Shown in pieces: positions 26,881 to 26,939 of a stretch of DNA of 64,000 nucleotides (within the stretch, counting starts at the first letter, position 1; every line of letters begins with the position of its first letter). Both the position numbers and the translations under genes were made by a program. Source of the stretch: Clostridiales bacterium (GTDB lineage Bacteria; Bacillota; Clostridia; TANB77; CAG-508); the NCBI GenBank assembly GCA_003534295.1, contig DPDV01000008.1, positions 146,132 through 210,131 on the forward strand, read 5' to 3'. Below the pieces are notes generated by a model. That model saw nothing but the letters and a program-made list of their open reading frames with translations, searched no databases and was not told where the DNA came from.

Positions 26881-26939
26881 GTAGGGGCGAACTTGTTCCC
26901 CCTCGCTTCCGGAGGACGGGCGATTTTAATCGCCCCTAC
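26881..26939. repeat. GC-rich palindromic MITE-like element, copy A (complete: 10-bp terminal inverted repeats around a GGGCGAT-N4-ATCGCCC palindrome)
   Basis: GTAGGGGCGA...TCCGGA...GGGCGATTTTAATCGCCCCTAC in AT-rich intergenic DNA between convergent rpsI and mreB. Related copies lie at 33250 and 62485. Confidence 0.6.

Follow-up and report, generated by a model that had tools for sequence, protein, structure and literature searches.

Introduction

The closest described relatives of the repeats studied here are the REP and BIME elements of E. coli with their transposase TnpA_REP (structure 4ER8) and the REPIN-RAYT systems of Pseudomonas, in which a short G+C-rich hairpin carries the tetranucleotide GTAG at its 5' foot. 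The repeats of these systems are extragenic and of high copy number, occur both as singlets and as inverted doublets, make no target-site duplications, and vary in presence and absence between relatives. The associated gene, a small HUH/Y1 gene, is bracketed by inverted REPs, an arrangement called the 'REPtron'. What is known of systems of this kind, which pair REPs with a REP-associated tyrosine transposase (RAYT), comes almost entirely from Proteobacteria, and Clostridia have received only a passing mention, for the Group 1 RAYTs (PMC5581495). GTAG REPs have been reported in Proteobacteria, Cyanobacteria, Chloroflexi and PVC, with no mention of Firmicutes or Clostridia (Di Nocera et al. 2013, PMC3733652). 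Among the RAYT groups, Group 1 alone is described as 'also found in the Clostridia', and its members are only weakly associated with repeated flanking 16-mers, with about 12 occurrences (Bertels et al. 2017, PMC5581495). Our search of the literature on RAYTs or REP-associated tyrosine transposases in Clostridia or Firmicutes found nothing more specific than this.

Two features of the described systems matter particularly for what follows. The REPs of TnpA_REP subclass 2.4 are 'double-foot' elements, in which one end carries GT[AG]G and the opposite end C[TC]AC; the proposal is that an inverted REP dimer gives rise to them when its central part is deleted (Quentin et al. 2018, PMC6006769). In addition, a single-stranded, fork-coupled mode of activity is known for IS200/IS605 and has been proposed for TnpA_REP (PMC3333891, PMC3479197, PMC8266576, PMC6006769).

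Here, we analyse a 64-kb stretch of DNA, hereafter the window, from a species that is very prevalent in the human gut and has a genome of about 1.4 Mb; in the assembly collection, 8704 blocks contain the MreB sequence encoded in the window. The window carries repeats that are very probably GTAG-type REPs of a REP-RAYT system belonging to a lineage of low-GC uncultured gut Clostridia. They are a known kind of bacterial repeat, in a lineage where this kind is hardly described. We document a compact REP with a 7-bp stem, its cognate RAYT of 149 aa (in relatives), and rearrangements of the repeat between strains.

Results and discussion

Three intergenic copies of one hairpin

The sequence CGATTWWAATCGCCCCTA is present in three copies in the window, all of them in intergenic spacers and in one orientation, for a chance expectation of 0 (Table 1). 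A sequence-only reading of the window had pointed out these copies, and their sequences, their positions, their intergenic placement and their common orientation are as it described. When the 21-mer GGGCGATTWWAATCGCCCCTA was searched on both strands of the window with up to 3 mismatches, it matched copies A, B and C only, and as the core is palindromic each of them was matched on either strand; the expectation from 100 dinucleotide-preserving shuffles is 0. The heptamer TCGCCCC is also restricted to the three repeat sites within the 64 kb, the G+C content of which is 27.8%. Copy A separates the convergent genes rpsI and mreB. Copy B occupies a spacer of 57 bp between two co-oriented genes, those of a PP2C phosphatase (stp) and of a PrkC-type kinase (prkC), and copy C lies between two paralogous minus-strand genes that encode proteins of 457 aa and 460 aa.

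Table 1. Position and structure of the repeat copies in the window and of the genes and the hairpin next to copies A and B.
Feature	Position	Strand	Description
rpsI	ends 26774	+	convergent with mreB
Hairpin of rpsI terminator	26800..26829		terminator-like on the minus strand too
Copy A (whole)	26881..26939		59 bp, GTAGGGGCGAACTTGTTCCCCCTCGCTTCCGGAGGACGGGCGATTTTAATCGCCCCTAC
Left REP of doublet A	26881..26902	+	GTAG + GGGCGAA-CTTG-TTCCCCC; 'GGGCGAA' subtype; one mismatch in the stem (family form TTCGCCC)
Linker of doublet A	26903..26917	.	TCGCTTCCGGAGGAC; contains TCCGGA, a variant of the central CTTCGAAG palindrome of the family
Right REP of doublet A	26918..26939	-	minus strand GTAG + GGGCGAT-TAAA-ATCGCCC; the sole fully intact unit in the window
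mreB	26996..28003	-	
PrkC-type kinase gene (prkC)	31260..33227	-	
Copy B, decayed REP singlet	33250..33273	-	GCGACGATTAAAATCGCCCCTACA; minus strand GTAGGGGCGATTTTAATCGTCGC; folds at -4.9 kcal/mol
PP2C phosphatase gene (stp)	33285..34007	-	
Extended repeat around copy C	62464..62527	-	shortened member of a subfamily of about 75 nt: AAGATAGTGTAAAGTAATTTATGAAAAAATGTAGGGGCGATTTTAATCGCCCGTTCTTCGAAGAAATTACTTAAAA
Copy C, REP singlet	62485..62509	-	GCGGGCGATTAAAATCGCCCCTATA; perfect stem, tag ATAG instead of GTAG; -7.7 kcal/mol

On the minus strand of the window, the unit reads 5'-T GTAG GGGCGAT TTTA ATCGCCC GC-3', i.e., a G+C-rich stem of 7 bp closed by a loop of 4 nt, with GTAG at the 5' foot. The loop (TTTA or TAAA) had initially been counted as 5 nt. 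As single-stranded DNA, the 22-nt consensus unit folds at -7.6 kcal/mol (z = -4.05). We scanned for intact units, defined as a perfect G+C-rich hairpin preceded by GT[AG]G, a pattern for which shuffled sequences gave 0. One of the four units in the window is intact, namely the right half of copy A. The left half has a mismatch in the stem, copy B has a decayed arm, and copy C has the tag ATAG where both halves of A and copy B have GTAG. Copies B and C had been thought to keep the core. This is true of copy C, the stem of which is perfect, but not of copy B, where the left arm is GCGACGAT instead of GCGGGCGAT and the stem is therefore broken.

Two REP subtypes make up copy A, a heterotypic inverted doublet of the BIME/REPIN type, and copies B and C are singlets. 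The doublet consists of a GTAG-REP, a 15-nt linker and a REP-CTAC, and folds end to end (-16.2 kcal/mol, z = -3.5). Because its arms belong to different REP subtypes and the left arm is mismatched, it is nearer to a BIME Y/Z pair than to a perfect REPIN. Its termini had been interpreted as 10-bp terminal inverted repeats; each is in fact the 5' half, with its GTAG tag, of one of two separate hairpins in inverted orientation.

The REP family in related genomes

One exact-pattern scan of species-representative genomes matched at least 116 tiles (8 kb each), mostly from metagenome-assembled genomes (MAGs) of gut Clostridia with 25-31% G+C, and the 26-nt core recurs more than 100 times in them. 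The sources among the listed tiles include rabbit, goat, rumen, mouse and human gut MAGs and 'Candidatus Scatovivens', and a single MAG is often represented by several tiles. Copies beyond the window are therefore many in related genomes, and one more was found just outside it in the same species, where the density is 3 loci (4 units) in the 64 kb plus 1 copy in 10 kb of adjacent DNA. The copies are mostly intergenic: among the 124 listed, 11 fall inside called ORFs, chiefly at ORF edges or in spurious ORFs. No Rfam 15 family matched the window at the gathering score, and with E up to 1 nothing overlapped the repeats; no tRNA or tmRNA lies at or near them. The motif is part of neither a coding gene nor an Rfam family, two possibilities that had been raised against its being a dispersed repeat.

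A position matrix built from 103 non-identical low-GC copies, among the matches listed, gives a sharply bounded core, TGTAGGGGCGATTTTAATCGCCCGC. The exact-match search pattern inflates the apparent uniformity of the family. Outside this pattern, conservation is seen in the GGG that closes the stem (98-102 of the 103 copies listed), in CTAC, the reverse complement of GTAG, which abuts the stem directly and keeps its non-searched C in 97 of these 103 copies, and, in the same set, in the A of CTACA and in the GC that follows the stem. A weak CTTCGAAG palindrome consensus is present beyond the core in about half of the 103 related copies listed. For genome scans, the REP core can be searched, with mismatches, as TGTAGGGGCGATTWWAATCGCCC.

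Inverted doublets account for 12 of the 103 copies listed (12%), most of them of 58-60 bp like copy A, and singlets for the other 88%. Doublets of 58-60 bp with an intact left arm were found in four tiles (L049, L009, L034 and L107), and the one in L049, GTAGGGGCGAACTTGTTCGCCCGCGCTTCGAAGAACGGGCGATTAAAATCGCCCCTAC, folds as a long hairpin (-22.1 kcal/mol, z = -5.7). Homotypic doublets are present in L020. The inverted REP pairs of this tile were considered as brackets of a RAYT gene and rejected, since the gene between them is an unrelated membrane-protein gene. A check for target-site duplications in 12 doublets found none: they are missing in ten, and in the remaining two the match is of just 2 bp, which is consistent with chance.

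Copy C belongs to a subfamily of units of about 75 nt, which aligns with members in L013, L014, L071, L112 and L138 that are located at different positions on different contigs. In L138, which comes from the window's own species, the unit lies upstream of valS, a gene with no relation to the paralogous pair around copy C. We rejected the idea that the conserved flank of copy C is a product of the tandem paralogous genes around it because the same unit recurs at this valS site and elsewhere in other MAGs.

A RAYT-type gene bracketed by the repeat in relatives

In a related genome (L012), two inverted REP copies 530 bp apart bracket an ORF of 149 aa (1582-2031). The encoded protein matches Pfam Y1_Tnp above the cut-off (6e-7), and in NCBIfam it is best matched by 'REP-associated tyrosine transposase' (REP_Tyr_transpos; 1.4e-17, 64 bits, below the equivalog cut-off of 80 bits). 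Across the PDB sequences its sole match is E. coli TnpA_REP (4ER8, E = 1.9e-5), in an alignment that spans NHIH/EHMH (the HUH motif), WQKSFYEH/WQPRFWEH and YIKYN/YIYIN. The HUH, WQ/WE and YIxxN motifs are nearly invariant across 120 homologues. The protein database holds 1562 homologues, some of which are labelled 'REP element-mobilizing transposase RayT' by JGI. Most of the contigs that carry a RAYT are shorter than 2 kb, as would be expected of genes with repeats on both sides.

The flanks of the L012 gene are 51-nt inverted repeats that are 92% complementary and contain the REP, with GTAG facing outward. Four further RAYTs, 71-83% identical to the L012 protein, are bracketed by GTAGGGGCGATTTTAATCGCCCGC upstream and GCGGGCGATTAAAATCGCCCCTAC downstream, with single-base changes in the upstream flank copy in L117, L119, L120 and L121. 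In total, this makes five REP-bracketed RAYTs of 149-150 aa in four genomic contexts (L012, L117-L123). Judged from its sequence, a gene of this type within inverted REP brackets is the defining REP-RAYT arrangement, the REPtron (PMC3333891, PMC6006769). The search for an IS200/IS605-type transposase that had been suggested for these repeats was the decisive test: it revealed, in related genomes, a Y1 (IS200-like) RAYT gene flanked by exactly this repeat.

Searches by tblastn and with the family HMM, which covered the 64-kb window and about 12 kb of same-species DNA next to it, found no RAYT gene, and the association between RAYT and REP thus rests on related species. Two weak HMM matches in L060 were judged false, as no NCBIfam model matched and the DNA is rich in repeats. 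No REP insertion was seen inside a RAYT gene.

The clostridial repeats share with the E. coli and Pseudomonas systems the features listed in the Introduction: the tag at the foot of a short hairpin, the extragenic location and probably the high copy number, the singlets and doublets, the bracketed small gene, the lack of target-site duplications and the variable occupancy between relatives. They differ from them in the low-GC host, in a stem that is very short and perfect (7 bp with a 4-nt A/T loop) when compared with the long bulged REPs of E. coli, in a small RAYT (149-150 aa, with NHIH, WQ and YIKYN) that scores below the NCBIfam equivalog cut-off, and in the excess of singlets over doublets (88% against 12% among the matches listed). 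Within the published classification, the HUH motif NH[IFV]H and the WQ motif of subclass 2.4 fit the clostridial protein, but its tyrosine motif is YIKYNV and not YIxNNP, and its length is 149 aa instead of about 194 aa. By motif description, NHIH and WQ fit subclasses 2.4 and 2.6, and YIKYNV fits no subclass exactly (PMC6006769). Unlike the Group 1 RAYTs as described, the clostridial ones are flanked by a REP that is abundant.

The RAYT, if analogous to E. coli TnpA_REP and IS200/IS605, would recognise the folded hairpin and its GTAG on single-stranded DNA, mainly on the lagging-strand template, and would cleave and rejoin DNA at the REP (PMC3333891, PMC3479197, PMC8266576). Such cleavage and rejoining would disperse REP singlets and inverted doublets through intergenic DNA and preserve them there, with no duplication of the target site. 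Any effects of the hairpins on mRNA, such as stabilisation of 3' ends or intercistronic processing, would plausibly be a side effect.

Gain, loss and rearrangement of the copies

Comparison of presence and absence showed that related species differ in REP occupancy at orthologous sites. A REP-bearing insert of about 225 bp in L022 corresponds to a site where the window is contiguous (around 58325). In L064, a REP lies between rlmN and a phosphatase gene, where the window has a spacer of 3 bp, and copy B is absent from the orthologous site of the same tile.

The copies also differ within the species. Copy A shows point differences in four same-species contigs with an identical MreB. In one of these four, L126 (1.33 Mb), a 33-bp deletion between two TCGCCC segments collapses copy A to a 'double-foot' palindrome, TGTAGGGGCGATTAAAATCGCCCCTACA. 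The comparison of the window doublet with this palindrome shows between strains a central deletion like the one proposed for the origin of the subclass 2.4 REPs. The defect of copy B is fixed in 8 same-species contigs, and copy C is identical in 2 others. The window copies are non-autonomous passengers, and decay mutations are seen in copy B, in copy C and in the left half of A. Since one of four units is intact, copies B and C are fixed and no RAYT lies nearby, the window copies may be relics.

The REP copies are useful as strain markers, and repeats of this sort are also of practical interest because they break short-read assemblies. At operon junctions, e.g., between stp and prkC or in the valS leader, REPs may alter the fate of the mRNA.

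Orientation relative to genes

Among the matches listed, the upstream gene is on the GTAG strand in 70 of the 89 low-GC copies with called genes on both sides (79%), and between tandem genes the GTAG-strand orientation is split 51 to 12. Almost every long ORF of the window lies on the minus strand, and the plus strand has a GC skew of -0.24. The usual rule in Firmicutes is that the G-rich, gene-rich strand is the leading strand. Being both G-rich and gene-rich, the minus strand is read here as leading, and GTAG would then lie on the sequence that matches the lagging-strand template. The orientation bias fits a fork-coupled single-stranded mode and co-transcription with the upstream gene equally well. 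Copy A lies between the stop codon of mreB and the bidirectional terminator-like hairpin that terminates rpsI; for this reason it is probably in the 3' UTR of mreB, upstream of a terminator common to both genes.

Alternative explanations

The hairpins could be RNA signals selected locus by locus, such as intrinsic terminators, 3'-end stabilisers or intercistronic processing sites, with no mobile family behind them. Every copy is indeed just downstream of a gene, the upstream gene is on the GTAG strand in 79% of the cases counted above, and a preprint reports that REPs of E. coli influence what becomes of 3' UTRs (bioRxiv 10.64898/2026.03.23.713779). On the plus strand, copy C even looks like a terminator, with a hairpin followed by CTATATTTTT. 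However, this lone terminator-like call is antisense to the genes, and copy A was not flagged. What follows the hairpin on the gene-sense strand is GC/GTTCTTCGAAG and not a U-tract, and we rejected an intrinsic terminator on the ground that no T-run comes after the hairpin there. The local settings of the copies also fit poorly: copy A is upstream of a separate terminator hairpin, and copy B is confined to the short stp-prkC spacer, 11 nt before GAGGAGAG, the ribosome-binding site of prkC. Terminators do not repeat an identical 26 nt at more than 100 unrelated loci in many species, and the present repeat brackets a transposase gene. We thus regard a primarily RNA-level origin as very unlikely.

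The ends of ordinary autonomous IS200/IS605 elements are typically asymmetric. Scattered left- and right-end fragments of such elements, instead of REPs of a domesticated RAYT, would account for an associated protein that matches Pfam Y1_Tnp and, weakly, NCBIfam transpos_IS200, but the gene flanks found here are symmetric inverted repeats with GTAG-foot hairpins. The score of the protein as a RAYT (64 bits) is far above its IS200 score (21.7 bits), and TnpA_REP is its only PDB match. At the RAYT loci examined, none of the adjacent called genes has TnpB-type Pfam domains, and in the tiles the hairpins outnumber the gene 140 to 1 among the matches listed. The plasmid and phage collections yielded no close homologue, only distant ones (27-32% identical), and the two closest RAYTs, P0097 and P0107, occupy the same neighbourhood in different assemblies. 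Some RAYT groups do behave like insertion sequences (Bertels et al. 2017, PMC5581495); even so, we hold the end-fragment explanation to be highly improbable. A classical MITE, which derives by deletion from a DDE-type insertion sequence and has both terminal inverted repeats and target-site duplications, is suggested by the 59 bp of copy A with its 10-bp inverted termini and by the presence/absence polymorphism. This deserves next to no credence: a duplication is missing in 10 of 12 doublets and is a chance match of 2 bp in the others, 88% of the listed copies are single hairpins that have no second terminus, the termini are themselves GTAG-tagged hairpins, and the only associated gene encodes a Y1/HUH enzyme and not a DDE transposase. 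Among the interpretations offered by the sequence-only reading, that of a REP was correct, the MITE-like anatomy was wrong, and the BOX, RUP and recombination-site readings found no support. BOX elements of streptococci are modular boxA-B-C units, and RUP is an element of 107 bp with IS630-type ends and a TA duplication; these descriptions set both apart from a GTAG hairpin of 22-26 nt linked to a Y1 transposase.

Near-identical units beyond the low-GC gut Clostridia

The scan that identified the REPs of gut Clostridia also matched Methylococcales, Chromatiaceae, and MAGs of about 60% G+C labelled Clostridia (one of them from goat rumen). In Methylococcales and Chromatiaceae, the series GTAG-GGGCGAT-loop-ATCGCCC is identical or nearly so, with Methylococcales doublets pairing one base fewer (GGCGAT/ATCGCC). 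The Methylococcales tiles L010, L041, L059, L078 and L089 also share the partner stem GGGCGAA/TTCGCCC, in a GTAG...CTAC doublet. An example from Methylococcales is the doublet GTAGGGGCGAATTCATTCGCCCAGGGCGATTAAAATCGCCCCTAC, and one from Chromatiaceae is GTAGGGGCGATTTAAATCGCCCCTAC. These hosts differ from the clostridial ones in phylum and in G+C content (40-65%), and their repeats have a shorter linker. No RAYT was found by tblastn or with the family HMM in the Methylococcales and Chromatiaceae tiles.

That gammaproteobacterial REPs are nearly identical raises a testable question, that of transfer versus convergence. Common descent or horizontal transfer of the REP-RAYT pair, as opposed to convergence, seems to us rather unlikely. 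Convergence is plausible because the search selected this exact sequence among about 185,000 species. Descent or transfer between phyla, if true, would contradict the picture of REPIN-RAYT systems as strictly vertical and lineage-specific, and would provide a natural experiment in which one RAYT-REP recognition code has survived from 25% to 65% G+C. Double-foot palindromes like the one formed by deletion in L126 are also present in these groups, in five Chromatiaceae tiles (L054, L056, L073, L085 and L088) and in one Methylococcales tile (L023).

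REP copies within the species and in related Clostridia

The REP doublet A of the window (26881-26939) is not conserved intact within the species. Compared with it, L126 (a contig of the same species) carries at 3080-3110 a 33-bp deletion inside the doublet, which turns it into the double-foot palindrome TGTAGGGGCGATTAAAATCGCCCCTACA, with a GTAG-type foot at one end and a CTAC-type foot at the other. A further REP of the same species, with one mismatch in the stem (ATCGTCC), lies on L138, ~7 kb past the left end of the window (Table). As it stands between a T-box leader and the start codon of valS, this REP is located in a regulated 5' leader.

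In relatives, two inverted REP pairs (L062 and L068) have a spacing of 150-180 bp with AT-rich filler, and no coding sequence is visible between the paired REPs of either. Their outer flank (…CTCTAC/CTCTAT…) is the extended flank of the RAYT in L012, the HUH/Y1 transposase bracketed by inverted REPs. The pairs may be shells of this REPtron arrangement that lack the RAYT, or they may represent a larger non-autonomous element. Other copies, in L064 (2940-3060), L065 and L015, are flanked by long imperfect inverted arrays built of short tandem motifs (GGAGGTTGGAAGTTGGAGGTTGGA ... TCCAACTTCTAACTTCTAACTTCC), which suggests that some REPs sit within composite mosaic elements. The REP population of the clade is also diverse: several further subtypes (in L008, L017, L018, L060, L118 and L122) have the GTAGGGGC start in common and differ in their stems, e.g., GTAGGGGCGGGCCTTGTGTCCGCCC, GTAGGGGCGAGCAGTGCTCGTCC and GTAGGGGTCGGCGTCCCCGACGACCC. 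The GGGCGAT type is the only subtype seen in the flanks of the RAYT.

Table. Positions of the features discussed in this part
Feature	Sequence	Position	Strand	Remark
Perfect 11-bp hairpin, TGCAATCCTGC-CTCAC-GCAGGATTGCA	window	41591-41618		within 40422-42006
MscL-like gene	window	45572..46084	+	neighbour of the folding stretch; convergent with the 372-aa gene
Intergenic stretch, 386 nt	window	46085-46470	-	lies between the 372-aa and MscL-like genes
ORF, 101 aa	window	46142..46447	-	overlaps the folding stretch
372-aa gene	window	46544..47662	-	other neighbour of the folding stretch
T-box leader	L138	19020-19238		112.9 bits
REP inside ~75-nt extended unit	L138	~19283-19355		region 19020-19373
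valS start codon	L138	19373		
Inverted REP pair	L062	2000-2220		
Inverted REP pair	L068	750-945		

Structured stretches and strand asymmetry

The minus-strand RNA of the intergenic stretch next to the MscL-like gene is predicted to fold into a chain of perfect hairpins of 9-15 bp (-155.8 kcal/mol, z = -9.3 relative to shuffles). It has no match in Rfam at E values up to 1. The stretch may represent a structured RNA that has not been described before, or else several palindromic elements clustered together. The 11-bp hairpin lies in a 1.6-kb region that contains only small ORFs (≤141 aa).

Strand asymmetry is very strong over the whole window (plus-strand GC skew -0.24, AT skew -0.21), with the minus strand carrying almost every long ORF. 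The exact MreB sequence of the window recurs across the assembly collection, where 8704 blocks contain it, and the species has single-contig assemblies of ~1.4 Mb; the bacterium is thus very prevalent in the gut, and its genome is small.
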